From positions 672,001 to 736,000 of the forward strand of contig CAWCUS010000001.1 of the NCBI GenBank assembly GCA_963798845.1: a DNA stretch of 64,000 bases, written 5' to 3'. Of the stretch, positions 2,229-20,263 are shown in pieces. Every line of letters starts with the position of its first letter. Position 1 is the first letter of the stretch. The notes below the pieces were generated by a model. The model did not search any database. It saw only the letters and a list, made by a program, of their open reading frames with translations, and was not told where the DNA came from. Source of the DNA: an uncultured Gemmatimonadales bacterium (lineage in GTDB: Bacteria; Gemmatimonadota; Gemmatimonadetes; Longimicrobiales; RSA9). Made by a program: the position numbers and the translations under genes.

Positions 2229-2265
2229 GCCCGGCGCCGCACACCGGATTCCACGAGGAGGTTCG

Positions 2266-4407: not shown

Positions 4408-6960
4408 TCAGGACGGCGGGGGGGAGCCGGCCCGCTCGGGCACCGGAACGGAGTCCTGGAACGGCGTCGAGTCCGGCACCGAATCCGGGCCCACTGCCGA
4501 ATCCGGCACCGGGGTCGAATCCGGCCCCGGGGTCGGGGCCGGCATGAGCCGGGAGTCCGGCAGTCGCACGGAATCCGGGAGAGGCAGCGAGTCGGGAGCC
4601 GGGATCGAATCCGTGACCAGCACGGTGTCGGGCTCCGGCAGCGAATCCGGGAAGGGGAAGGAGTCCACGGGGATGCCCAGCGGTGCGGTGTCGGGCGGGC
4701 TCACCCCCTGTCCCTCGCGCGGGAGACGCGGCCGTCCGAGGTAGCGCTCCTGCTGCCGCTCCCGTTCCTCCTCGCCCTGGCCGAAGAGCCCTGCGACGAA
4801 GTGCCCCAGGCGGGCGAACGCGTGACGGATCCCCTGGATGAGGCGCCCGAAGAAGCCGCGCTCGGCCTCGCCGGCGGGACAAATGGTGGCCGGCACATCG
4901 GACTTGAGGAAGAGTTCGGTGCGCGCCTTCCCCTTCTCGGGGCGACACCCGTCCGCCAGGACGAGACCGCTGCCGGGGTCGATCCGCCGTTCCACCACGG
5001 ACGAGGGCCGTTCCCAGGCGTCGGGTCTGTCCCGCCTCCGGTAGGCGGCGCGGACGATCCGCCCCCAGACCGGCGCGGCCAGCTCGCCCCCGGTCGCGCC
5101 GGCGGCGATCGGCTGCGGCCTGTCGAGGCCGATCCACACGCCCCCCGCCAGGTCCGGCGTGTACCCCACGAACCACGCGTCGAAGCCCTCGTTGGTGGTC
5201 CCCGTCTTCCCCGCGGCCGGTGCGCGCACGCCGGCCTCCCGGACGGCGTGACCGGTGCCCCGGTCCACGACGTCGCGCAGCAGGCTCGTCACCAGGTAGG
5301 CGACGCCGGGCGAGAACGCCCGGTGCCGCTTCGGCCGTGCCCGCCAGACCACCTTTCCGGTGGTGTCCTCCACGCTCGTCACCAGGCGCGGCCGCACGGC
5401 CCGGCCCTCCGCGGAGAACGCGGTGTAGGCCGCGGTCAGATCAATGAGCGGAATGCCAATGGCGCCCAGGGCCAGCGACGGCAGGATCACCATCTGCTCC
5501 TGGACCCCGGCGTCCTTCGCCGCCCGCACCACGTCGTCCAGACCCACCGCGAGGGCGAGCCGAGCGGTAGCGATGTTGACGGAGTGGACTGCCGCTTCCC
5601 GCATGGTCACGTCCCCGCCGGAGCGGCCGCTGAAGTTCTGCGGCTCCCACACCTCGCCACCCGGGAGCTTCACCACCAGCGGCTCGTCACTCAGCCGCTG
5701 GCTGGGCGCGTAGCCGTTGCGCAGCGCGGCGGCGAAGACGAACGGCTTGAACGCGCTGCCCACCTGACGCCTCGCCTGGGTGGCGCGGTCGTACGGGGAG
5801 TCGTCGAAGTCGCGGCCACCCACCAGCGCCAGCACATCCCCGCTGTCCGACCGCATGACCACGGCCGCCCCCTGCAGGTAGCGCGTCCCGGCCGAGTCCA
5901 CCGCGTCCGCTTCCCCGTAGCGCTTCTCCCCGCGATAGCGGCCGTACGCCCCTCTCTCGATCGACGCCAGCTGCCGCCTGACCTCCCGCTCGGCCGCGCG
6001 CTGGAGCGCCGGGTCCAGCGTGGTGTGGATGCGGAGCGGGCCGGCGTACAGCCCGTCGCCCAGCTGCCGCTCCAGCAGGCGGCGCACCGCCCGAATGAAG
6101 TAGGGAGCCGGCCCTGGCTTCTCGTCCGGCAGCGGTCGCTCACGGACGACGCGGAGCCGCGTCGATTTCGCCTCGTCCGCCGAGTCCCCCGACACCCGCC
6201 CCTGTGCCGCCATGAGCGAAAGCACCAGGTCACGCCGCTCCTTCGCGCGATCGGGATGCTCGCGCGGATCGTAGCTGTTGGGCGCTTTCGGCATGGCCGC
6301 CAGCGTGGCCGCCTGCGCCAGCGTCAGCTCCTCGGCCGGGCGGCCGAAGTAGGCCCTCGCTGCCCTCTCGATGCCGTAGACCGCCCCGCCGAAGTAGATG
6401 TGGTTGAGATACAGCTCCAGGATGTCGTGCTTGCTGAAGCGGTCCTCGATCTCCCCGGCCACGCGCATCTCCAGCAGCTTTCGCGTCAGCGTCTGCTCCT
6501 GCCCCGGCAGCCGGCCCGGAAAGACGTTCCTCGCCAGCTGCATCGTGATCGTGCTGCCGCCCTGTGCCGCGCCGCCCGCGCGCACGTCCGCCAGAAACGA
6601 TCCCGCCATGCGACGCCAGTCCACCCCGCCGTGCTCGTAATATCGGCGGTCCTCCACCGCCACGAACGCTGCCGGGACGTAGCCCGGGAGCGAGTCCAGC
6701 GCCACCAGCGCGCGAGACACGGGGGCCAGTCGCGCCACCTCGTCTCCGTTGCGGTCCAGGACCACGGGCGCTCCGCCGGGCTGCAGCGCCGCCAGCCGCT
6801 CCACTGCCGGGCAGCCGCGCAGCCCGCACGTCTGCCACGTCAGCCAGGCGAACAGCACTGACACGCCCGCGGCCACCAGCACCCAGCGCAGCGGTGGCGG
6901 CCAGTGCAGACCGCCGCCGCGCCAAATGGTAGGGTCGCGCCGCCACAGCGCGCCCAGCAT
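4408..6960 (-). CDS. Class A penicillin-binding protein (transglycosylase/transpeptidase) with Pro/Asp/Ser-rich tail
   Basis: EDRRYYEHGGVD, GGSTITMQLARN, RKLLE, YLNHIYFG; transpeptidase SAFK, SVN, KTGT; start uncertain (6960-7038). Confidence 0.95.
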   Translation of the reverse strand: MLGALWRRDPTIWRGGGLHWPPPLRWVLVAAGVSVLFAWLTWQTCGLRGCPAVERLAALQPGGAPVVLDRNGDEVARLAPVSRALVALDSLPGYVPAAFVAVEDRRYYEHGGVDWRRMAGSFLADVRAGGAAQGGSTITMQLARNVFPGRLPGQEQTLTRKLLEMRVAGEIEDRFSKHDILELYLNHIYFGGAVYGIERAARAYFGRPAEELTLAQAATLAAMPKAPNSYDPREHPDRAKERRDLVLSLMAAQGRVSGDSADEAKSTRLRVVRERPLPDEKPGPAPYFIRAVRRLLERQLGDGLYAGPLRIHTTLDPALQRAAEREVRRQLASIERGAYGRYRGEKRYGEADAVDSAGTRYLQGAAVVMRSDSGDVLALVGGRDFDDSPYDRATQARRQVGSAFKPFVFAAALRNGYAPSQRLSDEPLVVKLPGGEVWEPQNFSGRSGGDVTMREAAVHSVNIATARLALAVGLDDVVRAAKDAGVQEQMVILPSLALGAIGIPLIDLTAAYTAFSAEGRAVRPRLVTSVEDTTGKVVWRARPKRHRAFSPGVAYLVTSLLRDVVDRGTGHAVREAGVRAPAAGKTGTTNEGFDAWFVGYTPDLAGGVWIGLDRPQPIAAGATGGELAAPVWGRIVRAAYRRRDRPDAWERPSSVVERRIDPGSGLVLADGCRPEKGKARTELFLKSDVPATICPAGEAERGFFGRLIQGIRHAFARLGHFVAGLFGQGEEERERQQERYLGRPRLPREGQGVSPPDTAPLGIPVDSFPFPDSLPEPDTVLVTDSIPAPDSLPLPDSVRLPDSRLMPAPTPGPDSTPVPDSAVGPDSVPDSTPFQDSVPVPERAGSPPPS

Positions 6961-7032
6961 CCGACGCAGCCGCCCGGGAATGGTTCGTGCACTCGTTTGC
7001 ATTCGACTCATGCCAAACAGGGAGTCGGAAAT

Positions 7033-7404
7033 ATGCACAAACTATGCAGCGTTCGCGCCGGCACGCTCGTCGCCCTCCTCGCCGCCGTCGCCCTGAGCGC
7101 CTGCGGCATGTTCGGCGGCAGCAATCAGCCCGAGCCCGCCTTCGCCACCGTCACGATCAACAACGACAGTCCCACGACCGTCACCGCCTATGCCGTCCGC
7201 TCCAGCGGCGTGCGGTATCGCCTCGGCACCGTGCCGGGCCTGACGGAAAAGGACTTCGACCTGCGCTCCGACATGGTCGGCCCCACGGGCGAGATGCAGC
7301 TGGTTGTGGACGTTCTCGGAACTTCCCGCATCTACTCGTCCGATCAGGTCTTCATCGAGCAGGGCGACAGCGTCGAGTTCACGGTCAGCCACATGGTGCG
7401 GTAG
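7033..7404 (+). CDS. Small lipoprotein, beta-rich
   Basis: GGAG RBS; hydrophobic signal with lipobox LSAC; RLGTVPG motif. Confidence 0.7.
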   Translation: MHKLCSVRAGTLVALLAAVALSACGMFGGSNQPEPAFATVTINNDSPTTVTAYAVRSSGVRYRLGTVPGLTEKDFDLRSDMVGPTGEMQLVVDVLGTSRIYSSDQVFIEQGDSVEFTVSHMVR

Positions 7405-7765
7405 AGCCGGCCTGCCTGTCCGGCTTCCCGGCCTGCCGCTTCCATCGCTTTATTACCCCCCGTAACATATCTTCAGCGAACCGGGGGCATCCGTCTCCCG
7501 GCTCGGCCGCGGGACGCGGCAGGAGAGGCATCGTGGCTACGCAGGGAGGCCGTTTCACGCGGTCGCTTCCTGGCAAGCGGTCGCCGTGCGGCGTTGCACA
7601 CCACGAGCCGGGGCATGCCCCGACCTACGGGGCGCCCCAGTTCCCTGCCCTATCCCACAGACGCGGCCGACGCGCGTTCCCAGTCCTTCGAGACCGACCT
7701 GATCCGTCTCCGGCTCGCAACCGGGGAACGCGCGCGTACCCATTCCATCCCGGGGAGAGATCGTA

Positions 7766-8383
7766 ATGCCGACGCAGACAAAGGAGCGGGATTCCACGCT
7801 GATGAAGATCCCACAGGACCTCATCGAGCGGGGCCGCGGACTCGCGGGCATGGGGCACGACGTATGGCTTGCCGGCCTCGGCGCCTTCGCGGCGGTCGAG
7901 GAGGAGGGAAGCGCGCTGTACGACAGACTGGTGAAGCGGGGTCGGACCGTGGAGAAGAGCGGGCGCAAGCGCGTCGAGGAGATGCGCGAGGAGATGGAGG
8001 ACCGGCAGCAGAAGGTGACGCACGGGCTCGAGGAGAGGGTGTACGACCCGATCATGAACGCGCTCCGCTCGTTCGGTGTGCCGACCCGTCGCGAGATCCG
8101 GGAGCTGACGGGGAAGGTGGACGCGTTGACCCGTCAGGTGCAGGTGCTGGTCAGCCAGATGCCGGGCGCCGCGCCGGGAGAGTACGAAACGTACTACGTC
8201 ATGGCGCGCGAGGACACGTGGATCGTGGGGCGGGAGGGCGCCGACGAGCCGCTGTTCGTCGAGCCGACCAAGGAGCTGGCGCTGGAGCGGGCCAGGCAGG
8301 TGGTGCACAGCCAGGCGCCGAGCCGCCTGCACGTGTACCGCCGTGACGGCAGCATCCAGGACACGTTCACGTACGAAGAGTGA
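7766..8383 (+). CDS. Phasin (PhaF/PhaI-like granule-associated) domain fused to a C-terminal DUF2188-like domain
   Basis: VWLAGLGAF...EEGSALYDRLVKRG and GVPTRREIRELTGKVDAL (phasin_2 type); YYVMAREDTWIV..TKELALERAR...LHVYRRDGSIQ (DUF2188 type). Confidence 0.82.
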   Translation: MPTQTKERDSTLMKIPQDLIERGRGLAGMGHDVWLAGLGAFAAVEEEGSALYDRLVKRGRTVEKSGRKRVEEMREEMEDRQQKVTHGLEERVYDPIMNALRSFGVPTRREIRELTGKVDALTRQVQVLVSQMPGAAPGEYETYYVMAREDTWIVGREGADEPLFVEPTKELALERARQVVHSQAPSRLHVYRRDGSIQDTFTYEE

Positions 8384-8386
8384 CCC

Positions 8387-9634
8387 GTGGCCGCCAGCCG
8401 CGTCGGCTTGGCGTGCGCGGGCGGCGTCGTCGAGGGGGCGTTCTACGAGATCGGGGTCCTGTGCGCCCTCGATGAGGCCGTCGAGGGGCTCGATCTGACC
8501 GCGCTCGACGTCTACGTGGGCGTCAGCGCGGGCGCCATCCTCACGGCGTGCCTGGCCAACGGGATCCCACCCCGGGACGTGGCCCGGGCGATGCTCTCGG
8601 TGGAGGCATCCCCGGACGCCCTCGCTCCCGAGGCGGTGTTCCGCCCGGCGCTGGCCACCTACGCCGCCCGCGCGGCGGGAGTGCCCGTGCGCGTCCTGGG
8701 CGCCATCGCCCGCTACGCTGCGGACCCCCGCGACATCTCGCTCTTCGGCTCGCTCCTGGAGCTGGCCACGGCGCTGCCGGTGGGGCTGTTCGACAACCGG
8801 CCGCTGGAGCAGCACCTCGCACGCGTGTTCTCCGCCGAGGGCCGCACCAACGACTTCCGGGAGCTCCCCGCCACGCTGCGCATCGTGGCGGTCAATCTGG
8901 ACACGGCGGAGCTGGTGGCCTTCGGCGACGACGCCACCGCCCACGTCCCCATCTCCCGGGCTGTCCAGGCCAGCTCCGCGCTCCCGCTGATGTATCTCCC
9001 CGTTGAAATCGACGGGGAGTATTACATCGACGGAGTGGCGAGGCGGACGCTGAACGCGAGCCAGGCGCTCCAGGCGGGCGTGGACCTGCTTCTGTGCGTG
9101 AACCCCATCGTCCCTCTGGACCTGCGCATTCCGGGCGACGACGGCGTGCGCCATCCCAGCCTCGTCCACAGCGGGCTCCCTGCCGTGCTCTCGCAGACGT
9201 TTCGGACCATGATCCATTCGCGGATGGTGACGGGGTTCCGGAACTACGCGTTTCTGTACCCCGACGCCGACGTCGTGCTGCTGGAGCCCGAGGCCGGCGA
9301 CCGGACGATGTTCTTCACGAACATCTTCAGCTTCTCCCACCGCCACGAGGTGATGCACCACGGCTACGCGACGGCGCGCGGCTGGCTGCTGCGCAACGCC
9401 GGCCGTCTGGAGCCCGTGTTCCGCCGCCACGGCATGCGCCTGCGGGAGAGCGTGCTGACGGAGGACCGGCGCCTGGCGGTGGAGCGGCGACCGCTGCCCG
9501 GCGCGCGCGAGCTCGTGGGCCGCGCCAGCGCTGCGCTGGACGAGCTCTCGAGTGCCCTCGATCGGCTCCGCGCGAGGGGGGGCGGCACGAGCCGGAGGGG
9601 CGGTGCGGTCGGCTCCCCGCGGCGGCGCGGGTGA
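8387..9634 (+). CDS. Patatin-like phospholipase/esterase
   Basis: AGGVVEG oxyanion loop, GVSAG nucleophile, ASSALP, YIDG catalytic Asp. Confidence 0.9.
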   Translation: MAASRVGLACAGGVVEGAFYEIGVLCALDEAVEGLDLTALDVYVGVSAGAILTACLANGIPPRDVARAMLSVEASPDALAPEAVFRPALATYAARAAGVPVRVLGAIARYAADPRDISLFGSLLELATALPVGLFDNRPLEQHLARVFSAEGRTNDFRELPATLRIVAVNLDTAELVAFGDDATAHVPISRAVQASSALPLMYLPVEIDGEYYIDGVARRTLNASQALQAGVDLLLCVNPIVPLDLRIPGDDGVRHPSLVHSGLPAVLSQTFRTMIHSRMVTGFRNYAFLYPDADVVLLEPEAGDRTMFFTNIFSFSHRHEVMHHGYATARGWLLRNAGRLEPVFRRHGMRLRESVLTEDRRLAVERRPLPGARELVGRASAALDELSSALDRLRARGGGTSRRGGAVGSPRRRG

Positions 9635-9645
9635 GGAGGCGAGGC

Positions 9646-10842
9646 ATGGCATCGCGCACGCGGATCCTCCTGTTCACCGGCAAGGGCGGTGTGGGAAAGA
9701 CCACGTGCGCGGCGGCCACGGCCGTTCGCGCCGCGGAGCTGGGGCACCGGACGCTGGTGCTTTCGTCGGACCCGGCGCACTCGCTGGCGGACGCGCTGGA
9801 CCTGCCGCTCGGCCCGGAGCCCACGGAAGTGTTCCCGGGTCTGCACGCGCAGGAGCTCGACCTCTACTACTCCATGAACAAGCACTGGGGCAACATCCGG
9901 GAGCTGCTGCTGGTGATGTTCAAGTGGCAGGGCGTCGAGCGGGTGGCGGCCGAGGAGATGGCGGCGCTGCCCGGGATGAGCGAGGGGGCCGCGCTCCTCT
10001 GGATCGACCAGCTGCACGGCTCGGGCGACTATGACCTCATCGTCGTGGACAGCGCGCCGACGGGCGAGACGCTCACCCTCCTCACCCTGCCCCAGGTCAC
10101 GGAGTGGTGGGTGAAGCGGGCGCTCCCATTCCAGCGCTTCGCCGTGAAGACGGCCGGCTTCGCCATGCGAAAGGCGGCGGGGATCCCGCTGGACCGTGCG
10201 TACGCGGAGCTGGAGTCGCTGGTGACCCACCTGGAAGCGGTACGGGACCTCCTGACGGACCCCGACACATCGTCGATCCGGCTGGTGCTCAACCCGGAAC
10301 GGATGGTGATCCAGGAAGGGCGGCGCGCCTTCGCATACCTCCAGCTGTACGGCTACAACATCGACGCCGCGCTGGTGAATCGGATCCTGCCGGAGGAGGG
10401 AGTCGGCGACGCGCTCCAGGGCTACCTGGACGCCCAGCGCGGCTACCTGACCGAGATCCAGGAGGCGTTCGCGCCACTCCCGATCCTGCACGCCCCGCAC
10501 CGCGGCCGGGAGGTGTTCGGGGTGGACATGCTCCGCCGCCTGGGGACGGAGCTCTACGGTGACCGCGATCCGACGTACGTCTTCTACCGCGGCGAGCCGT
10601 ACCGTCTGGTGAGCGAGGACGGCGGCTACCGGCTCGACCTTCGGCTCCCCGAGAGCGCGGCCGGGCAGGTCACGGCCCGGCACGCGGGCGACGAAGTGGT
10701 CCTCCAGCTCGGAAACCAGCGCCGCAACTATTCGCTCCCCCGATTCCTCGCCTACTACACCCTGACCGGCACCCGCTTCGAGCAGGGATGGTTCCGCATC
10801 CGGTTCGAGCCCGTGGCGGGCCGCGCGAAGGAGGCAGAATGA
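9646..10842 (+). CDS. ArsA/GET3-family ATPase with C-terminal HSP20-like domain (Get3d-like)
   Basis: GKGGVGKTT, SSDPAHSL, DSAPTGE, LVLNPERMVIQE, C-terminal beta-rich YRLDLRLP...GNQRRNYSLP; single ATPase unit. Confidence 0.9.
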   Translation: MASRTRILLFTGKGGVGKTTCAAATAVRAAELGHRTLVLSSDPAHSLADALDLPLGPEPTEVFPGLHAQELDLYYSMNKHWGNIRELLLVMFKWQGVERVAAEEMAALPGMSEGAALLWIDQLHGSGDYDLIVVDSAPTGETLTLLTLPQVTEWWVKRALPFQRFAVKTAGFAMRKAAGIPLDRAYAELESLVTHLEAVRDLLTDPDTSSIRLVLNPERMVIQEGRRAFAYLQLYGYNIDAALVNRILPEEGVGDALQGYLDAQRGYLTEIQEAFAPLPILHAPHRGREVFGVDMLRRLGTELYGDRDPTYVFYRGEPYRLVSEDGGYRLDLRLPESAAGQVTARHAGDEVVLQLGNQRRNYSLPRFLAYYTLTGTRFEQGWFRIRFEPVAGRAKEAE

Positions 10843-12134
10843 CCGCGCCCACGACCACCGCCCAATCCCCAGGGACGACGCCGTCCGCCGCCGCAGCGCT
10901 GGACTCGCCGACGAGATCCCGTGCGGTGCGCCGTCCGGCCCAGGTCCCGCTGCCCCCGCCGTCGCGGCCCACGCGCATCCCGCGCGAGAACGACGACTAC
11001 GGCCCCAATGCCATCGCCCGGAGGCGTGCCTTCATCGAAGCGTCGAGCGGGGTGAGGCTCGAGCACGTCTCCGCCTGCTCCTTCGACCCGCGGCTGGCGG
11101 CGGGCAACTGCGAACACTTCACCGGCGTGGCCCAGGTGCCGCTCGGGTTCGCCGGACCGCTCCTGGTGCGCGGGGAGCACGCGGACGGCGAGTACCTGAT
11201 CCCGCTCGCCACGTCGGAAGGGACGCTCGTCGCCTCGTACAACCGCGGCATCCATACCCTCAACGCCGCCGGCGGCGTGCGGACCACGATCCTCGACGAC
11301 GGCATGCAGCGCGCGCCTGCGTTCGTCCTGGCCGACGCCCGGGAAGGGCGCGACTTCGCTGCCTGGGTGGCCGACAACATCCCCGGCATCCGCACGGCCG
11401 CGGAAGCCACCTCGCGGGTGGCCAGGCTGCTTCACGTGGAGCCGTTCCTGGCCAGCCGGTTCGTGTTTCTTCGATTCAGCTTCGAGACGGGCGACGCGGC
11501 GGGGCAGAACATGGTCACGCGGGCTACAGCGGCCGCGTGCCAGTGGATCGTCCAGCAGTGCGGCGGGGTGGAGCGCTTCTTCCTGGAATCGAACCTCGCC
11601 TCCGACAAGAAGACGTCGCACGTGAACATGCTGCGTGGACGGGGGAAGCGGGTGACGGCCGAGGCGGTGGTGCCGCGGACGGTGCTGGAGGAGCGGATGC
11701 GGGCGTCGCCCGACACGCTGGTCGCGCACTACCACGCCAGCTCGGTGGGCGCATTCCTGGCCGGTCCCAGCAACAACGGCCTTCACACGGCCAACGCGCT
11801 CGCGGCCATGTTCATCGCGACAGGCCAGGACGCAGCCAGCGTGGGCGAGTGCTCCGCGGGGATCATCCACGTGGAGCTCGCCGGTCCCGACCGCGAGGAC
11901 CTGTATGTGTCCATCACGCTCCCCTCCCTCATCGTGGCCACCCATGGGGGCGGGACGGGGCTGCCCACCCAGCGCGAGTGCCTGGAGGTCATGGGGTGCT
12001 ATGGCCGGGGGAAGGTTCGGATGCTGGCGGAGATCGTGGCCGCCGTGGTGCTGGCGGGCGAGCTGTCGCTGGCCTGCGCGATCGCCTCCAACGAGTGGGT
12101 GGAAGCCCACGAACGCATGGGGAGGAACCGATGA
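10839..12134 (+). CDS. hmgA: Hydroxymethylglutaryl-CoA reductase, class I (archaeal/eukaryotic type)
   Basis: PLATSEGTLVASYNRG, TGDAAGQNM, SNLASDKK, GRGKRVTAE, ATGQDAA, GGGTGLPTQ, LAGELSL, C-terminal catalytic His; ATGA overlap with the upstream gene. Confidence 0.92.
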   Translation: MTAPTTTAQSPGTTPSAAAALDSPTRSRAVRRPAQVPLPPPSRPTRIPRENDDYGPNAIARRRAFIEASSGVRLEHVSACSFDPRLAAGNCEHFTGVAQVPLGFAGPLLVRGEHADGEYLIPLATSEGTLVASYNRGIHTLNAAGGVRTTILDDGMQRAPAFVLADAREGRDFAAWVADNIPGIRTAAEATSRVARLLHVEPFLASRFVFLRFSFETGDAAGQNMVTRATAAACQWIVQQCGGVERFFLESNLASDKKTSHVNMLRGRGKRVTAEAVVPRTVLEERMRASPDTLVAHYHASSVGAFLAGPSNNGLHTANALAAMFIATGQDAASVGECSAGIIHVELAGPDREDLYVSITLPSLIVATHGGGTGLPTQRECLEVMGCYGRGKVRMLAEIVAAVVLAGELSLACAIASNEWVEAHERMGRNR

Positions 12135-13501
12135 CGTGGACCTCGCCGCCGCCGGGCGGCCGCCGGTTCTCCGGCGCGGACAGCTCCTGGTGGCACATGG
12201 AGGAGCCCACCAATCAGATGGCCATCACCGTGGTCCTGACGTTCGATGGCCCGATCGACGAGGACCGTCTCCACGCCGTGCTCCGCGATCGGCTCCTGCG
12301 CCACGACCGCTTCCGGCAAATGGTGGTGGAGTCTCCGCTCGGGTTCGGCCGCCCTCAATGGGTGGAGGACCCGGGGTTCTCCCTGGAGCGGCACCTGAGC
12401 CGGATCCGCCTGCACGACGGCGGCGGGAAGGCGGAGCTCCAGCGGGTCGCAGGGCTGGAGATGAGCCGCCCTCTCCACCCGGACCGCCCCCTGTGGCGCA
12501 TGGTCTACGTCGACGGCTTCGAAGGCGGCTCCGCCCTCGTGATCCGCATCCACCACTGCATCGCCGATGGCCTCGCCCTCGTACGGGTCCTCATGACCCT
12601 CGGCGATCCTACGGACGGTGCGTGCGGCGAGCGGGCGAGCCCGGCCGTCCTCGACCCCGCCACGTACGCCTCGCCTTCGGTCACGATGACGGCGGGAGAG
12701 GCGGCGGAGCGCGACTTCGTCCGAGCCCTGGCGCTGGGCACCCGCGCTGCGGGGTCGCTCGGCCGCCTCGTGGGGCTGCGCCCGGACCCGCGGACCGCGC
12801 TGCGCGGGCCGCTGTGCCGGGAGAAGCGCGCGGCGTGGTCGCGTCCAATGTCGCTGCGGCGGCTCCGGGCCGCCTCTCGCGCCGCCGGCGCCACGCTCAA
12901 CGACGTGGTGGTCGCCGCCGTGGCGGGCGGACTGGGGCGCTTCCTGGCGGAGAAGGGAGAGCAGCTCACGCGTGAAGTCCGCGCGGTGGTCCCCGTGAAC
13001 CTGCGCCGCAACGGCGACGAAGAAGCGCTGGGCAACCGCTTCGGGCTGATCTTCGCTCCGTTGCCGCTGGGCATCCCGAATCCTCTCGAGCGTCTCGGCG
13101 CGGTGCACGCTACCCTGAGCCGGCTCAAGCGCTCGCCCCAGCCGATGGTGATCTACGGCCTGCTGGAGCTCCTCGGCCGTACGCCGCGCGCCGCCCTCGA
13201 CCTGGCCGTCTGGCTCCTCGGCAGCAAGGGCTCGCTGGTTCTCACGAACGTGCCGGGTCCCCGTCGCAGGATTCGCATCTGCGACCGTGAGCTCCTGTCT
13301 GTCGTCGGCTGGGTTCCCCAGTCCGGCCGATTGGGGCTCGGTGTCAGCATCCTCAGCTACGCGGACGAGATCCGGCTGGGCGTCGCCACGGATGCCGCGA
13401 TCCTCCCGTGCCCGGACCACCTGGTGGGCGCCATCCAGGATGCTGCCGACCAGATCCTCGACACCGTTCGCCCGCCCCGGGTGGCGGAGGTGGTGGCATG
13501 A
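12131..13501 (+). CDS. Wax ester synthase/diacylglycerol acyltransferase (WS/DGAT)
   Basis: HHCIADG catalytic motif, PLHPDRPLW, TLNDVV, VPVNLR, TNVPGP, SILSY; ATGA overlap. Confidence 0.93.
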   Translation: MTWTSPPPGGRRFSGADSSWWHMEEPTNQMAITVVLTFDGPIDEDRLHAVLRDRLLRHDRFRQMVVESPLGFGRPQWVEDPGFSLERHLSRIRLHDGGGKAELQRVAGLEMSRPLHPDRPLWRMVYVDGFEGGSALVIRIHHCIADGLALVRVLMTLGDPTDGACGERASPAVLDPATYASPSVTMTAGEAAERDFVRALALGTRAAGSLGRLVGLRPDPRTALRGPLCREKRAAWSRPMSLRRLRAASRAAGATLNDVVVAAVAGGLGRFLAEKGEQLTREVRAVVPVNLRRNGDEEALGNRFGLIFAPLPLGIPNPLERLGAVHATLSRLKRSPQPMVIYGLLELLGRTPRAALDLAVWLLGSKGSLVLTNVPGPRRRIRICDRELLSVVGWVPQSGRLGLGVSILSYADEIRLGVATDAAILPCPDHLVGAIQDAADQILDTVRPPRVAEVVA

Positions 13502-15402
13502 GCACCGCAGCTCGGGATCCGGACGCCCGTCCGCTCGCCCTGGTCCGCGGCGAAACGGGCAGCGACGCGCCCCCGGCACCCCCCGCGCCTCCGGCGGAGG
13601 AAGCGGCGCTGGAGGGGGCGCCAGCGGAGTCGGCGCTGGCCGGGCTCGTCCCGCGCACCGCGCCGCACCTCCACGCCACCTATCGGAGCGTCATCGGTCG
13701 CTTCTTCGGCGTGCACCGGCACGTCCTGGGTCTGCTGGTGGGGGCGAGGGTCGCGAGGGCGGACGGGCTGCCGCCGGACCAGCGCCGCCGCTTCCGGTCG
13801 CTTCCACTGCGCGCGTCCGCCGCGGTGCTGCGCCCGCTCCTGCTCCGAGAGCTGCGCCACGCTCCCTTCCCGGAGCAGCTGCGCCGTCGCCTGGAGCTGC
13901 TCGGTCCCACGTACGTGAAGCTCGGCCAGATCATGGCCATCCGTGAGGACCTGCTCCCCGCCCCCGTCTGCCGGGCGCTCCAGGTGCTCTTCGACCACGT
14001 GCCGCCGGTGCCGTTCGAGACCGTGCGCCTGACCCTCGAGCGGGAGCTGGGCCGCCCGATACACCAGGCGTTCCGCTGGGTAGACGAGGAACCGCTCGGC
14101 TCGGCGTCCATCGCGCAGGTGCACCAGGCCGAGACCGTCACCGGCGACGCCGTGGTCGTGAAGGTCATGAAGCCCGGAATCCGCCGCTCGATCGAGACCG
14201 ACCTGCGCCTGCTCCGCTGGCTCGGCGCGCTTCTCCAGCACGTGCTGCCGCGCTACCAGCCGCGCCGGATCATCGACGAGTTCGGCACCTACACGCTTCG
14301 AGAGCTCGACTTCACCGCCGAGGCGGACAACGCCGAGACGTTCGCCGCCAACTTCCACGACACCCCGGAAGTGTGCTTCCCGCGCATCTACCGCGAGCTC
14401 ACCACGCCCTCGCTCCTCACCATGGAGCTGCTGCGGGGGTTCAAGCCATCCGATCCCCGGGCACGCGCCCTCTCCGCCGACGACCGCGAGCGCCTCACCG
14501 ACCTCGGCGCCGGCGCCATCATCCGCATGCTGTACCGCGACGGCTTCTTCCACGCCGATCTCCATCCGGCCAACCTCCTCATCCTCGGCCGTGAGACGGT
14601 TCGCGCCGCGGGGGCTGGAGTCGGCGGGGGGGGCGCGTGGGGCGCCGCGGGCAGCGCGGCGGCAGCCTCGAAGGCCGCCCATGCAGCCGACCACAGCGAT
14701 CGCGACACGCTCCGTGTGGGCTTCGTGGACCTCGGGATGGTGGGACGCTTCGAGGACCGGATGCGCCGTCGCATGCTCTACTACTACCACGCGCTGGTCA
14801 CCCGCGACGTGGAAGGGGCGGCCAAGTTCCTCGGCCAGATGGCCGAGCTCGGCCGTGGCGCCGACCCCGTCGCCTTCCGGCGCGCCGTCGTGGACCTCTC
14901 GCGTCGCTTCGTCACCCGCGCCGAGCGCGGCGAGTTCAGCATCGCCCAGCTCATCCTCGAGTCCATCGGCCTCGGCGCCCGCTACCGCGTCTACTTCCCC
15001 GTGGAGATGACGCTCATGGTCAAGGCGCTGGTCACGTTCGAGGGCGTCGGTCGCATGCTCGACCCCCACCTCGACGTCACGGCGATCTCACGCCGTCACG
15101 TCAGCCGCATCCTCCAGCGACAGTTCACGCTCGAGCGGGTCAGCCGCGAGGTGCTGCGCGAAGCCCCCGAGCTGATCGAGCTCGCCGTCGGTCTCCCCCA
15201 GCTGCTGGTCAGCGGCAGCCGCTTCCTCGAGGAGAGCTTCGACCGACGCCCTCCCCGCGACCCCGCCACGGGCCTCCGCTCCGCGGTGCTCGCCGGCGCA
15301 TGCCTCATCGGCGGCGTTCTCACCCTCACCGCGGCCGGACCGCCCGCGCTCTGGATCCCCCTCTTCGGCCTCGCCGCCGTCATGGCGGTGTGGCGGGGCT
15401 AG
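13498..15402 (+). CDS. ABC1/UbiB/AarF family atypical kinase
   Basis: LGPTYVKLGQ (KxGQ), SASIAQVH, VVKV, ELDF..EA, FFHADLHPAN, FVDLGMVG, two C-terminal TM helices; ATGA overlap. Confidence 0.93.
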   Translation: MSTAARDPDARPLALVRGETGSDAPPAPPAPPAEEAALEGAPAESALAGLVPRTAPHLHATYRSVIGRFFGVHRHVLGLLVGARVARADGLPPDQRRRFRSLPLRASAAVLRPLLLRELRHAPFPEQLRRRLELLGPTYVKLGQIMAIREDLLPAPVCRALQVLFDHVPPVPFETVRLTLERELGRPIHQAFRWVDEEPLGSASIAQVHQAETVTGDAVVVKVMKPGIRRSIETDLRLLRWLGALLQHVLPRYQPRRIIDEFGTYTLRELDFTAEADNAETFAANFHDTPEVCFPRIYRELTTPSLLTMELLRGFKPSDPRARALSADDRERLTDLGAGAIIRMLYRDGFFHADLHPANLLILGRETVRAAGAGVGGGGAWGAAGSAAAASKAAHAADHSDRDTLRVGFVDLGMVGRFEDRMRRRMLYYYHALVTRDVEGAAKFLGQMAELGRGADPVAFRRAVVDLSRRFVTRAERGEFSIAQLILESIGLGARYRVYFPVEMTLMVKALVTFEGVGRMLDPHLDVTAISRRHVSRILQRQFTLERVSREVLREAPELIELAVGLPQLLVSGSRFLEESFDRRPPRDPATGLRSAVLAGACLIGGVLTLTAAGPPALWIPLFGLAAVMAVWRG

Positions 15403-15487
15403 CGACGCCCTTGCCCTGGTTGCCGGACGCGACGGGACGGCCGACACTACGGGTAGACGCCTGCACCCTACCACCCCGACACCCGCG

Positions 15488-16039
15488 ATGATGAGTGAAA
15501 TCGAGAACGACGCCTCGACCCCGCCCACGACGCCCGCCGGGCCGCCGGCGCCGCCTCCGCCCCTGGACCTTCGCGTGGCGGAGGTGACGGAAGCGGACGA
15601 GCATCCGAACGCGGACCGGCTGCTGATCCTCCGGGTCGACCTGGGAGACGAGCGCCGCCAGCTGGTAGCGGGGCTGGCGGGGATCTACGACCCGGCGGAG
15701 CTGGTGGGGAAGCGGATCGTCGTCGTGGCGAACCTGAAGCCGGCACGTCTGCGCGGGGAGGCGAGCCAGGGAATGCTGCTCGCCGCCCACGGCGACGGGA
15801 AGGTCGGCGTGCTCCTCGCTCCGGACGCGGTGCCGGGCACGCCGCTCGAGACCGGGGCCCGCGCGGACACCGGAACCTCGCAAGCAGCCCCGCCCGCCGA
15901 AACGCCGCCGCAGATCACGATCGACGACTTCGGCCGCCACACGATCATCGCCTCGGCCGAAGGTGTGAGCCTGGACGGAACGCGGGTCGAGCGGCCCCGG
16001 CTGGTGGTCGACCGAGAAGCCTGGGGTCCGGTGAAGTAG
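15488..16039 (+). CDS. Stand-alone tRNA-binding OB-fold protein (Trbp111/CsaA/MetRS C-terminal-like)
   Basis: LDLRVAEV..HPNADRLL..VDLG..RQLVAGL...NLKPARLRGEASQGMLLAA. Confidence 0.88.
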   Translation: MMSEIENDASTPPTTPAGPPAPPPPLDLRVAEVTEADEHPNADRLLILRVDLGDERRQLVAGLAGIYDPAELVGKRIVVVANLKPARLRGEASQGMLLAAHGDGKVGVLLAPDAVPGTPLETGARADTGTSQAAPPAETPPQITIDDFGRHTIIASAEGVSLDGTRVERPRLVVDREAWGPVK

Positions 16040-16170
16040 GTGGGCGGGAAGGGGGCTGGCGTACCCCCCGGGCGAGCCCACCGCGCGACCCTTGCCGGCG
16101 GCGCCGTTCGTCGCCATTGAAGAGGAGCGGCGTACACACGCACGACGGGCGGCGCGCCCGGGAGGTCGGC

Positions 16171-16485
16171 ATGGCAGCAGCGACAATGGACCGGATGATC
16201 GCCTTCTGCGGGTCGGACTGCGACGCCTGCCCGATCTATCTGGCCACGCCCGATACGGGGGACACCGGCTCGGTCGCGCGGGCGATCACGGACTGCGACG
16301 GCTGCCGCGCGGGCGCTCGTCTGTTCGCGGAGTGCGAGGAGTGCGAGATCCGGAAGTGCGCCCTGGCACGGGGGCTCGAAGGCTGCGCCCGCTGCGACGA
16401 CTTCCCGTGCGACGTCCTCCGCCCCCACCTCGCCTACGATCCCTGCGCGAGAACGCAGCTGGAGTCGCTGCGCGCGCGGTCGTAG
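16171..16485 (+). CDS. Cys-rich DUF3795-like protein
   Basis: IAFCGSDCDACP...CDGC...CEIRKCA...CARCDDFPC; GGAGG RBS. Confidence 0.8.
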   Translation: MAAATMDRMIAFCGSDCDACPIYLATPDTGDTGSVARAITDCDGCRAGARLFAECEECEIRKCALARGLEGCARCDDFPCDVLRPHLAYDPCARTQLESLRARS

Positions 16486-16498
16486 GCCAGGCGGCGGA

Positions 16499-16897
16499 TC
16501 AGGGGCCGAAGAGCGCGACCAGGGCGAAGCAGGCGGCGAGGACCAGCGTCGCCGGCGACATGACGAGCCGCTCGACCCGCGATTTCGACGCCAGGTTCCC
16601 GAAGAAGTTGACAGCGAAGAACGCCGCCGACACCCACGTGGCCGCGTGCACCGAGGCCGGCTCCGGTCCGGGCGGCGCCAGCCCCGCGCGCGCCAGCACC
16701 ACCCACCCCGCCACGGCGAGGATGAGCGCGGCCAGTGCGCTGCCGAGCCGGAGCCGGGGCGGTAGCACCGGGTAGGCGCCTCCCCACGCGGCTCGCCCGA
16801 GCGGCAACCCTGCGGCGAGCAGGAGCTGGAGGACGGCCACGGCGGCGAGCACCGACGCGGCCACGAGGGCGGCGATCCGGGAGAGCGTCATCGGCAT
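16499..16897 (-). CDS. Small 4-TM membrane protein
   Basis: Four hydrophobic segments; GLPLGRAAWGG and NLASKSRVER motifs. Confidence 0.72.
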   Translation of the reverse strand: MPMTLSRIAALVAASVLAAVAVLQLLLAAGLPLGRAAWGGAYPVLPPRLRLGSALAALILAVAGWVVLARAGLAPPGPEPASVHAATWVSAAFFAVNFFGNLASKSRVERLVMSPATLVLAACFALVALFGP

Positions 16898-17276: not shown

Positions 17277-17924
17277 ATGAGCATGAAGGATGGCACCGGC
17301 CGACGGAGGTACCCCGGGGTCCCGGGACGGCGCCCCCGCGCGCTCCCCATCGCCCACGCGCTGGCGTCACAGGCGGTCGGCACCGAGCGGCTGAGGGTCC
17401 GCGTCCCGTGGAGCGTTCCCGAGCTCGTCCGGTCGACGCTGGCCCTCGCCTGGCACGGTGGCGCCCCGCGCCCCGCCGCCATCGTCAGTCTCCTCTTGGT
17501 GGTATGCGCTGCGGCGGTCGCAGCGATGGTCCAGTGGGCGCGCGGAGGCTGGGACGCGGTGGATGCGCTGGCACTCGCCGTCATCGTGGTGCCGCCGCTC
17601 CTGGTGGTCTTCCTCGGCATGCCCGCGTCCGCGTTCTGGCACACGTGGCCCGTCCTGCGCCACGCCTCGGTCGCCGGCCACTGGGAAGTTCGCCTCGGCG
17701 ACGGCGGATTCGCCCTCCTCGCCGCCGCCAGCGCCGCCGGGACACCCTGGCAGCGAGTGGAGCGCGTGGTGGAGACGGATGGGTTCTTCCTCTTCTTCGT
17801 GGATCGCGCCGCGCTGGCGCTCCCCCGTCCCGCGCTCACGCCGGGGGATACGCGCGTCCTCCGGGCGTTGCTGTGGGCGAAGCTCGGCGAACGGTTCATC
17901 CTTCGACACGGCCAGGCGGCCTGA
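17277..17924 (+). CDS. YcxB-like membrane protein
   Basis: Two TM helices then PWQRVERVVETDGFFLFFV...LPRPAL; start uncertain. Confidence 0.6.
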   Translation: MSMKDGTGRRRYPGVPGRRPRALPIAHALASQAVGTERLRVRVPWSVPELVRSTLALAWHGGAPRPAAIVSLLLVVCAAAVAAMVQWARGGWDAVDALALAVIVVPPLLVVFLGMPASAFWHTWPVLRHASVAGHWEVRLGDGGFALLAAASAAGTPWQRVERVVETDGFFLFFVDRAALALPRPALTPGDTRVLRALLWAKLGERFILRHGQAA

Positions 17925-18073
17925 GGATCCTGGACGACACGCCGGCGGTGGATCCGGCCCGGCACGTTCCTTCCTCCCGGGGCCCGACCGTTCGGCAGGG
18001 CACCCCGGGCAGCGCCGGCAGGCAGCACGAGCGCGCCTTAGATTCGGCAGCGGACCCGATTCACGGAGCGGTG

Positions 18074-20263
18074 ATGTTCATGCACGCAACGTCTCCCCTT
18101 TTTCCCTGGCTGCTCGCGGCCACGGCGTTCGCCGCGGCGTCTGGAGGGTGCTCGGACGCCTCCGTGACGGCCCCGCCCGACAATGGGGGCGAGCCGCTTC
18201 CCTCGCAGGATGGGCATCGCTTCACCTACTCGCCGCCACCGCAGGCGCCTCCGATCGCCGACATCAGCGTCCGGGGGAGCTTCAACGGGTGGGAAGAGAA
18301 GCCGATGGCGAAGGGCACGAGTGGGGTCTGGCAGGTCGTCGTCGACCTCCCGGACGGGACGCATCAGTACAAGTTCTACGTGAACGGTGCGTGGGTGAAC
18401 GACATGTGCTACGACCCCACGTGGGGCGATCCGGACAACGGGTATGTCGTGGACCCGGCAGCGACCGGATGCGTGTCGGACGGAAACAGCGGCGCGAACG
18501 CGGTGCTGGCGCTGGGCGCGCTGCAGCTGGACTTCCGCCACCAGCCCGGCGGGGCCGCGTACGTGTCGGAGGCCGGGGGTCGCCTGTCGGTGCGGTTCAG
18601 GGCGCGCGCCGGGGTGGTGACGACGGCCGCCGTGGCCGCCGGGGACTCGACCTTCCCGATGCACCTGCAGCTGGTGGACGGGATCACGGAGGTGTGGCGA
18701 GCGTCGTTGCCGGACGCGACGACCGGCTACGCGATTGACGTCGCCACGGTGGACAGCACGGCGCACTTCGGGCCGTACCAGGTGCCGGCGAGCCTGTTCC
18801 GCTCGATTCGGTGGGTGGAGGACGCCGTCGGCTACCAGATCTTTCCGGAGCGCTTCTGGAACGGAGACCGTGGCAACGACCACTGGACAATGGACACGGA
18901 CGAGATCCACTTCCGGGACCCGTCGCTCCCGCCGTGGGACACGGTGTTCACCGACGACTGGAGCGGTCCGGCCACCGGATGGCTCCCCTCGCACCAGTAC
19001 TTCGGCGGGGACCTCCAGGGCATCATCGACCGTCTGGGACACCTGGATTCCCTCGGGGTGAGCGCGGTCTACCTCAACCCGGTCTTCCTGGCCGGCTCCG
19101 CACACGGGTACGACACGTACGACTACCTGAAGGTGGCGCCGAACCTCGGGGACAGCACGCTGCTCCGATCGTTCCTCGACGCCGCGCACGCGCGGGGAAT
19201 CCGCGTGATCTGGGATTTCGTTCCGAACCACGTGGGTATCGGCCACTGGGCGTTCCAGGATGCCCTGGCGAAGGGAGAGGCGAGCGAGTACTGGGACTGG
19301 TTCACCTTCAAGGTGCCCGCGGACTCCGTCCAGGCCGGGGACGACGATGACTACGAGAGCTGGGGAGGTAGCGGTTCGCTTCCGGAGCTCCGGACGGACA
19401 ACCCGGAGGTGATGGACCACCTCCTGGACGTCACCCGCCACTGGACGACCTTCGGCTTTGACGGCATCCGCGTGGACGTCCCGTTCGACATCGGCAACCG
19501 CAGCACGTTCTTCCCGGCGTTCCGCGCCGCGGCGAAGGCGATCGACCCCGAGGCGTATCTCGTGGGCGAGATCTGGAACCAGGTGCCAAGCTGGCTGCGG
19601 GGGGGCGAGTTCGACGCACTCATGAACTACGCCCTCGGCCAGCGCATGGTGGAAGCGTTCGCCGACGGCGACATCAGCGGTGTAGCGGCGGCCCGACGGA
19701 TGGCGTCCATGTACACCGAGTACCCGGAGGCGGCCGTGGCCATGATGTTCAACGTCATCGCGTCCCACGATACCGACCGGCTGCTCACCATGCTCGGCGG
19801 TGGCCACTACGGGGCGACCCCCGGCCCCGAACCGCTCGCCCGACAGCGGCTCGCCTCCGCGCTGCTCTATGCGCTCCCCGGCATGCCCGTCACGTTTCAG
19901 GGCGACGAGTGCGCCCAGCTCGGCGCCAAGTCGAGGAGCGACATGGAGCGTTACCCGGTGCAATGGAGCCAGTGCGACCGGGAGATGGTGGGGCACTACG
20001 TCCGGCTGGCCGGGCTGAAGCACGGGCTGGCGGCCCTCGGGTCTCCCGTGGTTCGGGCGGGTGAGGCTTCGCCGACCCTGCTCTCGTTCCACCGGGGCGA
20101 GCCGGGCCCGGGTGAGGTGCTGGCCGTGTTCAACAACGGCTCCGGTGAGGCAACGCTCGCGCTCCCGCCCGGCATCTGGAGCGACGCGGAGACCGGCGAG
20201 GCGGTGAATGGGAGCGTGGCCATGGAGGGACTCGGCTGGCGCTACCTGGTCCGGGGCGACTGA
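18074..20263 (+). CDS. GH13 alpha-amylase/neopullulanase-like lipoprotein with N-terminal CBM48/AMPK-type glycogen-binding domain
   Basis: Signal peptide ending SGGC; GSFNGW...YKFYVNG; YQIFPERF, GGDLQGI, HGYD, DFVPNH, GIRVDV, GEIW, SHD catalytic regions. Confidence 0.92.
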   Translation: MFMHATSPLFPWLLAATAFAAASGGCSDASVTAPPDNGGEPLPSQDGHRFTYSPPPQAPPIADISVRGSFNGWEEKPMAKGTSGVWQVVVDLPDGTHQYKFYVNGAWVNDMCYDPTWGDPDNGYVVDPAATGCVSDGNSGANAVLALGALQLDFRHQPGGAAYVSEAGGRLSVRFRARAGVVTTAAVAAGDSTFPMHLQLVDGITEVWRASLPDATTGYAIDVATVDSTAHFGPYQVPASLFRSIRWVEDAVGYQIFPERFWNGDRGNDHWTMDTDEIHFRDPSLPPWDTVFTDDWSGPATGWLPSHQYFGGDLQGIIDRLGHLDSLGVSAVYLNPVFLAGSAHGYDTYDYLKVAPNLGDSTLLRSFLDAAHARGIRVIWDFVPNHVGIGHWAFQDALAKGEASEYWDWFTFKVPADSVQAGDDDDYESWGGSGSLPELRTDNPEVMDHLLDVTRHWTTFGFDGIRVDVPFDIGNRSTFFPAFRAAAKAIDPEAYLVGEIWNQVPSWLRGGEFDALMNYALGQRMVEAFADGDISGVAAARRMASMYTEYPEAAVAMMFNVIASHDTDRLLTMLGGGHYGATPGPEPLARQRLASALLYALPGMPVTFQGDECAQLGAKSRSDMERYPVQWSQCDREMVGHYVRLAGLKHGLAALGSPVVRAGEASPTLLSFHRGEPGPGEVLAVFNNGSGEATLALPPGIWSDAETGEAVNGSVAMEGLGWRYLVRGD

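Follow-up and report, generated by a model that had tools for sequence, protein, structure and literature searches.

A probable wax-ester body operon with a predicted FcrA-type fatty acyl-CoA reductase in an uncultured Gemmatimonadales bacterium

The stretch of DNA analysed here, referred to throughout as the window, comprises 64,000 nucleotides (G+C approximately 71%) from an uncultured Gemmatimonadales bacterium (assembly GCA_963798845.1, contig CAWCUS010000001.1, positions 672,001 to 736,000), whose genome is represented by 4.26 Mb in 6 contigs and is 96.3% complete. According to the list of open reading frames (ORFs) and the sequence itself, six genes on the plus strand span positions 7766-15402, and we interpret them as a probable operon for the formation and use of a wax-ester (neutral-lipid) body. 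In order, they encode a phasin-like protein fused to a DUF2188 domain (7766-8383), a patatin-like serine hydrolase (8387-9634), an ATPase of the ArsA/Get3 family with an ArsA_HSP20 domain (9646-10842), a homologue of class I HMG-CoA reductase (HMGR; HMG, 3-hydroxy-3-methylglutaryl) that we assign to the FcrA type of fatty acyl-CoA reductases (10839-12134; hereafter gene 4), a wax ester synthase/diacylglycerol acyltransferase (WS/DGAT; 12131-13501) and an atypical kinase-like protein of the ABC1/UbiB family (13498-15402). Gaps of 3 nucleotides (8384-8386) and 11 nucleotides (9635-9645) separate the first three genes, and the remainder are joined by ATGA start/stop overlaps at 10839-10842, 12131-12134 and 13498-13501. 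The same layout had been given in a first-pass annotation, made by a model from the sequence alone, whose six family names were all matched by Pfam and NCBIfam. Rfam gave no match in 6500-16500, and a scan for promoters and terminators, uninformative for a high-GC organism, returned 0 promoter-like sites and no plus-strand terminator.

Gene 4 had initially been taken for an HMG-CoA reductase. It matches PF00368 strongly (414 bits, E 6e-124), and alignment to two structural references, the methanogen class I HMGR 6hr7 and human HMGR 2q1l, reveals an intact catalytic tetrad of E127, K257, D331 and H424 in the columns equivalent to Glu559, Lys691, Asp767 and His866 in HMGR numbering; Arg590, Asn686, Asp690, Lys692 and Asn755 are also kept in alignment to solved class I HMGRs. 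The residues that recognize the HMG moiety are another matter. In HMGR, the carboxylate of HMG is bound through a salt bridge by Lys735, and Ser684 provides a polar contact (PMC9500038). These positions are occupied in gene 4 by A300 and by E250, within the motif FLESNL, and the position of Leu862 in the C-terminal helix is occupied by W420, within the motif NEWVEAH. Corresponding substitutions extend through the clade of its relatives: Glu is present at the Ser684 column in 80 of 84 aligned rows, the Lys735 column of these 84 rows contains Val in 61, Ile in 19 and Ala in the window protein, and of 83 members compared at the Leu862 column at least 90% have Trp, as opposed to Leu in 5 canonical copies. 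Other changes characteristic of the clade are DAMGMN to DAAGQN, Gly685 to Ser, and Tyr749-Asn750-Ala751 to Asn-Gly-Leu. A second HMGR copy in the same genome, on contig C4, retains both Ser684 and Lys735.

An HMGR-derived clade of fatty acyl-CoA reductases, named FcrA, has recently been described (Grossi et al., ISME J 2025, PMC11948995). The characterized member, Pb-FcrA of 'Ca. Promineifilum breve', uses NADPH to turn acyl-CoA of C14 and longer into fatty alcohol; it fails to reduce HMG-CoA, and simvastatin does not inhibit it. The marks given for the family are Glu in place of Ser684, Trp in place of Leu862 and the loss of the Lys that binds the carboxylate (Lys735, which that paper prints as Lys795) (PMC11948995). 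Gene 4 carries all three. It is 59-79% identical to members of its clade versus 38-46% to other HMGR types, including 61% to the copy in a 'Ca. Promineifilaceae' metagenome-assembled genome (MAG; locus L039), and in a FastTree analysis of 44 sequences, none of them Pb-FcrA itself, the window protein and 30 sampled relatives form a monophyletic group of 31 (support 0.979). Judged by its sequence, gene 4 is an FcrA-type reductase and not a canonical class I HMGR (EC 1.1.1.34), the HMG-carboxylate contacts at Ser684 and Lys735 having been replaced, and the puzzle of an orphan HMGR among lipid genes is resolved by a family first described in 2025. Its activity, NADPH-dependent reduction of acyl-CoA, is predicted from family membership, having been shown for a relative.

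Two features sit less easily with this assignment. The N-terminal Lad beta domain (PF25653), present in the characterized enzymes, gave no match in the gene 4 protein, and a profile search of the whole genome also gave none, in a search whose control was likewise without a match; the domain is reported to be specific to certain FcrA only, and hence optional (PMC11948995). Residues 1-55 of the gene 4 protein are rich in Pro, Ala and Arg, and the closest relatives (P0002-P0011) are similarly short and likewise without Lad. In addition, scores against the NCBIfam HMGR equivalog (342-346 bits for FcrA-type proteins, 416 for the canonical copy, cut-off 442) do not separate the types, and this measure was dropped as a discriminator as the canonical copy also falls under the cut-off. 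A 3-hydroxyacyl-CoA or 3-hydroxybutyryl-CoA substrate, yielding 1,3-diols, had been entertained from the PhaR and phasin genes that neighbor some relatives of gene 4, and was discarded because Pb-FcrA uses acyl-CoA of C14 and longer (PMC11948995).

The genomic context of HMGR-like genes bears directly on whether gene 4 could instead serve the mevalonate pathway. The second PF00368 gene of the host (C4:466834-467988), 45% identical to gene 4, is surrounded by genes for a squalene-hopene cyclase, an HpnH-like radical SAM protein, an epimerase, IDI-2, a GHMP kinase, the mevalonate diphosphate decarboxylase MVD and a protein resembling squalene synthase; it is the housekeeping mevalonate enzyme, in a mevalonate/hopanoid cluster. 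Two sets of genomes were compared: one of 41, comprising 40 relatives and the host (G000), and a second of 50 further genomes carrying the FcrA clade, with G016, G017, G020, G026 and G062, flagged as unpublished, contributing only single rows to the counts out of 41 and out of 50. Because these are mostly MAGs of unknown completeness, a gene that was not found in them is not thereby absent, which limits the support that such negatives lend to our interpretation here and below. In the first set, MVD was found in 3 of 41 genomes (G000, G001 and G011), which also yielded the three best mevalonate-kinase matches, and IspH, a marker of the methylerythritol phosphate (MEP) pathway, in 38. HMGR-like genes occur in 11 of the 41, with canonical copies in G000, G001 and G011 only and FcrA-type copies in G000 and G021 only; G021 has the cassette and no MVD was found in it. 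In the second set, MVD was found in 20 of 50 genomes (18 over the cut-off and 2 fragmented), all 20 of which have a second PF00368 gene, located in 10 of them within approximately 3.5 kb of MVD. In the 30 without a detected MVD, the FcrA-type gene is the sole PF00368 match in 23. Five additional large genomes each contain two PF00368 copies. The FcrA clade thus occurs independently of the mevalonate pathway, and in the host the coupling to MVK and MVD belongs to the copy on contig C4. Many "HMG-CoA reductases" of bacteria with the MEP pathway are to be re-annotated as FcrA enzymes that form fatty alcohols.

These findings leave very little room for the proposal of a genuine HMG-CoA reductase in gene 4, one that would feed mevalonate or isoprenoid alcohols to the WS/DGAT, giving prenyl or isoprenoid esters in a plastoglobule-like body. 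The strong PF00368 match, the intact tetrad and the presence in the genome of a mevalonate pathway able to use the product are all in its favor, as is the association of ABC1 kinases with prenyl-lipid bodies in plants and cyanobacteria (PMC12223511). It must be reconciled, however, with substitutions at Ser684, Lys735 and Leu862 that occur together in a relative unable to reduce HMG-CoA (PMC11948995), with the cassette of G021, where MVD was not found, and with the 23 clade genomes in which neither MVD nor another HMGR was found; we regard it as highly improbable. The first-pass suggestion of isoprenoid or prenyl esters is not supported, on the same grounds, namely the FcrA residues, the separate canonical HMGR and the occurrence of the clade in genomes where MVD was not found.

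Further HMGR-like genes were encountered in these comparisons. A third type ("type C"), 40-46% identical to gene 4, has Glu at position 684, Val or Met at 735 and Phe at 862; it is represented by loci L003-L009, L012 and L105-L108 in eight genomes (G012, G021, G028, G032, G034, G036, G038 and G040), in which IspH was found and MVD was not. Its neighbors vary, G040 having a patatin gene two genes 5' and G012 a DUF3419 gene, and these reductases may be what the 2025 paper calls "putative FcrA". In G045, a highly divergent PF00368 gene (C1:1757280-1758383; L103/L109) lacks Arg590, Ser684, Asn686 and Asp690, and is followed a few kb downstream by genes for a ketosynthase and an AMP-binding enzyme. 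The host genome itself contains IspH (C6:357140-358183) in addition to the mevalonate/hopanoid cluster (C4:460853-473425; L014), and G011, one of the three genomes with MVD, is without IspH; the lineage of G000 looks as though it were in transition between isoprenoid pathways.

The gene that overlaps the end of gene 4 encodes a typical WS/DGAT, with matches to both WS_DGAT_cat (PF03007) and WS_DGAT_C (PF06974), a score of 363 bits against TIGR02946 (cut-off 310) and the active-site motif HHCIADG (HHxxxDG) at residue 141. It is the only PF03007 match in the genome. In the 41-genome set, WS/DGAT exceeds the cut-off only in G000 and G021, the same two that carry the FcrA-type reductase, and it was found in 38 of the 50 further FcrA genomes. 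No convincing FarA-type fatty acyl-CoA reductase was identified elsewhere in the host genome, the best NAD_binding_4 match being HpnA-like (83 bits); AcrB-type (PRK07201) and Acr1-type reductases were not searched for as such. The predicted products are wax esters, because FcrA makes the alcohol and the overlapping WS/DGAT the ester: gene 4 would carry out an NADPH-dependent, four-electron reduction that turns long-chain fatty acyl-CoA into fatty alcohol, and the WS/DGAT would join this alcohol to a second acyl-CoA, possibly forming triacylglycerol as well. That these two genes constitute a wax-ester core is a conclusion we hold with considerable confidence. Wax-ester and triacylglycerol bodies are known from Acinetobacter (AtfA and Acr1), Marinobacter (FarA/AcrB) and Rhodococcus (TadA/MLDS coats). 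The cassette resembles these actinobacterial and gammaproteobacterial systems in its final WS/DGAT step, its dedicated acyl-CoA reductase and its small coat protein, and differs in that its reductase is HMGR-derived, whereas theirs are of the SDR or FAR families, and in the family of the coat; to our knowledge, ABC1 and Get3-like genes are not parts of those systems.

For the two genes at the head of the cassette we propose roles in coating the inclusion and in mobilizing its contents. The phasin domain (PF05597; residues 27-128) scores 83 bits against a cut-off of 28.8 (E 1.9e-23) and is followed by DUF2188 (PF09954; residues 143-203, 43.6 bits); the gene is single-copy in the genome. The patatin-like protein (PF01734; 93 bits, E 2.8e-26) retains both motifs of the catalytic Ser-Asp dyad, GxSxG as a GVSAG nucleophile elbow at residue 45 and DG[AGV] as a DGV Asp motif at residue 215. 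Of the 58 genome loci in which fcrA has 12 kb or more of flanking sequence, 15 have a relative of this protein, 44-52% identical, in the neighborhood, and in these same 58 loci phasin genes occur in 15 and PhaR-like genes (PF07879) in 15, the latter adjoining the phasin gene.

Phasins are best known from the polyhydroxyalkanoate (PHA) carbonosome, which comprises the PhaC synthase, the PhaP phasin, the PhaR regulator and the PhaZ depolymerase. The likeness to the cassette and its relatives is evident: a coat, a regulator and a hydrolase encoded together, with PF05597 shared and PhaR-like PF07879 in the related loci. The first-pass annotation had noted no PHA synthase in the window, and the search of the whole genome bears this out, PhaC_N (PF07167) giving 0 matches in the window or in the 4.26 Mb and the class III synthase (TIGR01836) 0 matches in the host genome, where no PhaR was found either. 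In 17 genomes with phasin or PhaR beside fcrA, PhaC_N was matched in none and a class III PhaC exceeded the cut-off in none, the nearest being one 22-bit partial match. One could suppose that a PHA-like polyester is made by a non-canonical synthase, with the WS/DGAT or a patatin-fold enzyme acting as polymerase, and the classical specificity of phasin and PhaR for PHA, together with their recurrent pairing at fcrA loci, would speak for this. Yet the failure to detect class I/II or III PhaC in the host, or over the cut-off in any of the 17 genomes, is compounded by the chemistry of FcrA, which gives alcohols and not hydroxyacyl monomers, and by the lack of a detected PhaR in the host; such a polyester has, in our estimate, only the slimmest chance of being the product. 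The cassette further departs from the carbonosome in having a patatin-fold hydrolase in place of PhaZ and FcrA plus WS/DGAT as its biosynthetic part. The occurrence of phasin and PhaR-like genes where a PHA synthase is not detectable suggests that neither family is restricted to granules of polyester.

The last gene of the cassette encodes an ABC1 protein (PF03109; 207 bits, E 3.8e-61) with the family motif KxGQ as KLGQ at residue 141 and the catalytic-loop motif HxDxHxxN as HADLHPAN at residue 352. With scores of 314 bits against TIGR01982 (UbiB; cut-off 488) and 245 against NF003404 (cut-off 667), it falls below the equivalog thresholds and is apparently not UbiB proper, and it is the third, distinct ABC1 paralogue of the genome. 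Two hydrophobic stretches (residues 595-632) form its C-terminus, and it is the only protein of the operon with a C-terminal hydrophobic tail. A Gly/Ala-rich low-complexity insert lies between HADLHPAN and DLG, at approximately residues 366-405 (window 14590-14710).

The association of ABC1 with fcrA is not confined to this lineage. By tblastn and all-against-all clustering, 160 FcrA loci were assembled, 80 from genomes and 80 from metagenomes, the latter comprising relatives at 59-65% identity only, with those at 70-79% outside the set. Among loci with at least 2 kb of downstream sequence, an ABC1 gene on the same strand and no more than 2.6 kb downstream of fcrA was present in 30 of the 73 from genomes and 14 of the 48 from metagenomes (44 of 121 in total). 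By taxon, it was present in 15 of 18 loci of Thermoanaerobaculia, 6 of 6 of Gemmatimonadota, 6 of 8 of Vicinamibacteria and unclassified Acidobacteriota, and the single loci of Multivoradales and Balneolales, and the encoded proteins in other phyla are 43-57% identical to that of the window. No ABC1 gene was present in 16 loci of other HMGR types (L003-L013, L100-L104), for which flanks of only about 1.5 kb were available. Linkage of fcrA and ABC1 across phyla is therefore an observed feature of these genomes; what ABC1 does there is a guess. As ABC1 proteins are among the least understood of the conserved "kinases", the two-gene pairing offers a simple system in which their role might be approached.

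Other neighbors recur around fcrA less often. In the 58 well-flanked genome loci, WS/DGAT was found in 12, a GMC oxidoreductase in 9 (L049 among them), an acyl-CoA synthetase in 5 and an ArsA-like gene in 3. Individual loci depart from the usual arrangements: fcrA is tandemly duplicated in a deltaproteobacterial MAG (L064, 7014-8174 and 10001-11131), and in a KSB1 MAG (L024) a fragmented second fcrA (13437-14285) lies beside the intact one (10001-11152). In Terriglobia/Bryobacterales loci L019, L046 and L049, a divergent WS/DGAT (28-30%) on the opposite strand and then a distant ABC1-like gene (23-26%) are located upstream of fcrA, and in L070, of the same group, the divergent WS/DGAT alone.

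The ATPase encoded upstream of gene 4 has a single ArsA_ATPase domain (PF02374; 267 bits, E 2.8e-79) and a C-terminal HSP20-like domain (PF17886; 54.6 bits), and scores 232 bits against TIGR00345 (Get3/ArsA; cut-off 135). It contains a deviant Walker A motif, GKGGVGKT, at residue 12. The nearest solved chains are the archaeal Get3-like 3zq6 and 3ug6, and Nostoc All4481 (3igf) aligns over its full length (residues 7-387). The protein thus resembles Get3/TRC40 and All4481/NosAFP in its single ArsA-type domain and deviant Walker A, and All4481 also in the C-terminal HSP20-like domain; it differs in having no CxxC zinc motif and in scoring only 131 bits against NF050088 (All4481/NosAFP; cut-off 325). 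A gene of this type adjoins fcrA in three lineages only: the window, G021 and L043, a Rhodothermaceae MAG with the order arsA-fcrA-WS/DGAT and an ArsA 70% identical to that of the window. Its role in the module is uncertain, and we regard it as a lineage-specific addition and the weakest link of the set.

Comparison with relatives indicates that the six genes are present or absent together. In G021, which belongs to a different genus, the same genes occur in the same order with 59-75% protein identity: 62% for the phasin-DUF2188 protein, which shows the same fusion, 59% for patatin, 75% for ArsA, 69% for FcrA, 61% for the WS/DGAT, which is cut by a contig end, and 64% for ABC1, on a small contig. 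Directly 5' of this cassette, on the same strand, is a gene for a GMC oxidoreductase, a member of the alcohol-oxidase family that includes fatty alcohol oxidases. In G001, of the same genus as the host, DNA comparison shows the flanks to be contiguous: homology covers window 4555-7404 and resumes at about 15418/15508, so that approximately 7405-15417 is missing, with the gap ending just past the ABC1 stop codon. The flanking proteins are well conserved between the two, with identities of 92% for an S9 peptidase, 77% for PBP1A (4408-7038, minus strand), which lies upstream of the cassette, and 67% for the tRNA-binding protein (15488-16039) downstream of it. The unit as a whole, a 361-nucleotide leader plus the six genes (7405..15417, plus strand), is present in the host and G021 and missing from G001. 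No direct or inverted repeats or att-like sites above noise were found at its borders. Kept in order in one relative and missing as a unit from another, the gene arrangement exceeds chance. The co-occurrence proposed for the six families in the first pass is in this sense borne out for the whole cassette in G021, and five of them recur around the reductase in other phyla, the Get3-like ATPase adjoining it in three lineages only.

Taken together, these observations favor the view that the cassette is a wax-ester (neutral-lipid) body operon, which we consider probable; whether all six genes act together on one inclusion is, in our judgment, an evenly balanced question. In outline, FcrA and the WS/DGAT would furnish the ester, the phasin-like protein would coat the hydrophobic inclusion (as its family, its single copy and the lack of a detected PHA synthase suggest), and the patatin-like hydrolase, as a wax-ester or acylglycerol esterase, would free acid and alcohol when the store is used. 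The ABC1 protein would probably be anchored to the droplet, or to the membrane, by a hydrophobic hairpin at its C-terminus, and might regulate or service lipid flux, a mechanism we offer as a guess. The Get3/ArsA-HSP20 ATPase, again the weakest link, may act as a chaperone for hydrophobic clients, the tail of ABC1 or lipid-body proteins being examples. A compact cassette thus appears to encode the full life cycle of a wax-ester body, from synthesis and coat to mobilization, in phyla whose lipid droplets are essentially unstudied, and it may have practical use as a portable wax-ester module. The dedicated neutral-lipid inclusion module envisaged in the first pass survives as a conserved, self-contained, non-PHA unit, and loses its plastoglobule-like, prenyl-lipid part.

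Several results weigh against this interpretation of the cassette. The phasin-like protein scores 75 bits against TIGR01837, below the NCBIfam cut-off of 94.7, and co-transcription of the six genes is argued from their spacing alone because no promoter or terminator was recognized. ABC1 was found downstream of fcrA in 0 of 14 loci of Chloroflexota and 0 of 8 of Terriglobia, and of the 16 FcrA genomes (of 50) with an ArsA-HSP20 homologue, only one, the Rhodothermaceae MAG, has it next to fcrA. WS/DGAT was not found in 12 of the 50 FcrA genomes, including 4 of the 11 with phasin, PhaR or patatin genes beside fcrA, and sets of FcrA, ABC1 and phasin therefore need not imply wax esters. Ether-lipid roles have in fact been suggested for some FcrA (PMC11948995). 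It could accordingly be argued that FcrA alcohols serve membrane or envelope lipids, as alkyl ethers or free alcohols, with the phasin-like, patatin and ABC1 proteins engaged in membrane-lipid remodelling. The genomes without a detected WS/DGAT are in keeping with this, as are the frequent occurrence of fcrA without WS/DGAT and, in some bacteria, beside ether-lipid genes (PMC11948995), and the association of ABC1/UbiB proteins with membrane lipids. Set against it are the ATGA overlap of fcrA and WS/DGAT, the location within the cassette of the only WS/DGAT gene and the only phasin gene of the genome, the lack of a PlsC-like or AGPS gene within the cassette, and the nature of phasin and PhaR as families of inclusion-body proteins. 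For this locus we consider the membrane-lipid explanation unlikely.

A narrower functional unit is also conceivable, limited to fcrA and WS/DGAT or enlarged by the phasin and patatin genes, with arsA, ABC1 or both as passengers of a laterally moving cassette. The restricted adjacency of arsA to fcrA just described, the limitation of ABC1 linkage to certain taxa and the patchy distribution of the cassette (2 of 41 genomes) are all compatible with this. The passengers would nonetheless be bound to their neighbors by ATGA overlaps, between arsA and fcrA and between WS/DGAT and ABC1; moreover, the succession of fcrA and ABC1 recurs in Acidobacteriota, Gemmatimonadota, Balneolales and Multivoradales, and the order arsA-fcrA-WS/DGAT in the Rhodothermaceae MAG. 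We think it rather unlikely, on balance, that one or both of these genes are passengers, and continue to prefer a wax-ester body operon.

The relationship of the cassette to systems already described is one of partial overlap. It shares with the published pathway of FcrA and WS/DGAT the same residue marks, independence from the mevalonate pathway and co-occurrence with WS/DGAT; fcrA is directly beside WS/DGAT in Halovenus and one Holophagaceae contig (PMC11948995). By comparison with the FcrA enzymes described there, that of the window has no Lad (PF25653) or ACP domain, and its gene is one of six, the WS/DGAT gene being joined by those for phasin-like, patatin, Get3-like and ABC1 proteins. 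The main text of that paper contains no mention of ABC1, UbiB, phasin, patatin or Gemmatimonad, and our literature searches found no association of ABC1, phasin, PhaR, patatin or Get3 with fcrA, the query for FcrA returning PMC11948995 only. The first-pass remark that no description of the full combination was known is therefore only partly borne out. FcrA plus WS/DGAT is a published core pathway, and the gene set extended by ABC1, phasin, patatin and Get3 is, as far as these searches reach, new. Cyanoglobules and plastoglobules offer a second parallel and the nearest analogy for the extended set, since there too a neutral-lipid body with an acyltransferase is associated with a protein of the ABC1 family, the droplet proteome of Synechocystis containing three ABC1 kinases (ABC1Ks) and a DGAT2-like protein (PMC12223511). 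In those bodies the link is proteomic, the lipid is rich in prenylquinones and carotenoids and the coat is fibrillin or PG18 (PMC12223511); in the cassette, by contrast, the link is genetic, a fatty wax ester is the predicted lipid, a phasin-like protein serves as the putative coat and the phyla are non-photosynthetic.

A more sweeping possibility, which we put forward tentatively and would not yet call probable, is that fcrA, ABC1, phasin/PhaR-like and patatin genes make up a widespread, unrecognized lipid-droplet system in Acidobacteriota, Gemmatimonadota and neighboring phyla. ABC1 would then be an obligate partner of FcrA, gating or servicing the flux of acyl groups or alcohols at the droplet surface, and would correspond, in non-photosynthetic bacteria, to the ABC1Ks of plastoglobules and cyanoglobules. 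PhaR and phasin would have been re-used as a pair from polyester granules for wax-ester bodies, and in the lineage of the window the Get3-like-HSP20 ATPase would deliver proteins with hydrophobic tails, such as ABC1, to the droplet.

Some features of the surrounding DNA may be added. A 166-codon ORF on the plus strand (window 6904-7404), with no Pfam match, overlaps PBP1A, which is on the minus strand, at the annotated 5' end of the latter; the 166-codon ORF is kept in G001 up to its stop, and the cassette starts right after this stop. A second indel distinguishes the same two genomes, as a gene with CarboxypepD_reg repeats (2675-4339, minus strand) likewise has no counterpart in G001, in which the sequences matching window positions 2000-2670 and 4555-7404 lie almost side by side. 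Finally, 2 kb 3' of the cassette is a plus-strand gene of the alpha-amylase family with an AMPK1_CBM glycogen-binding module (17408-20263), a second storage-polymer gene in the vicinity, whose proximity may be coincidental.

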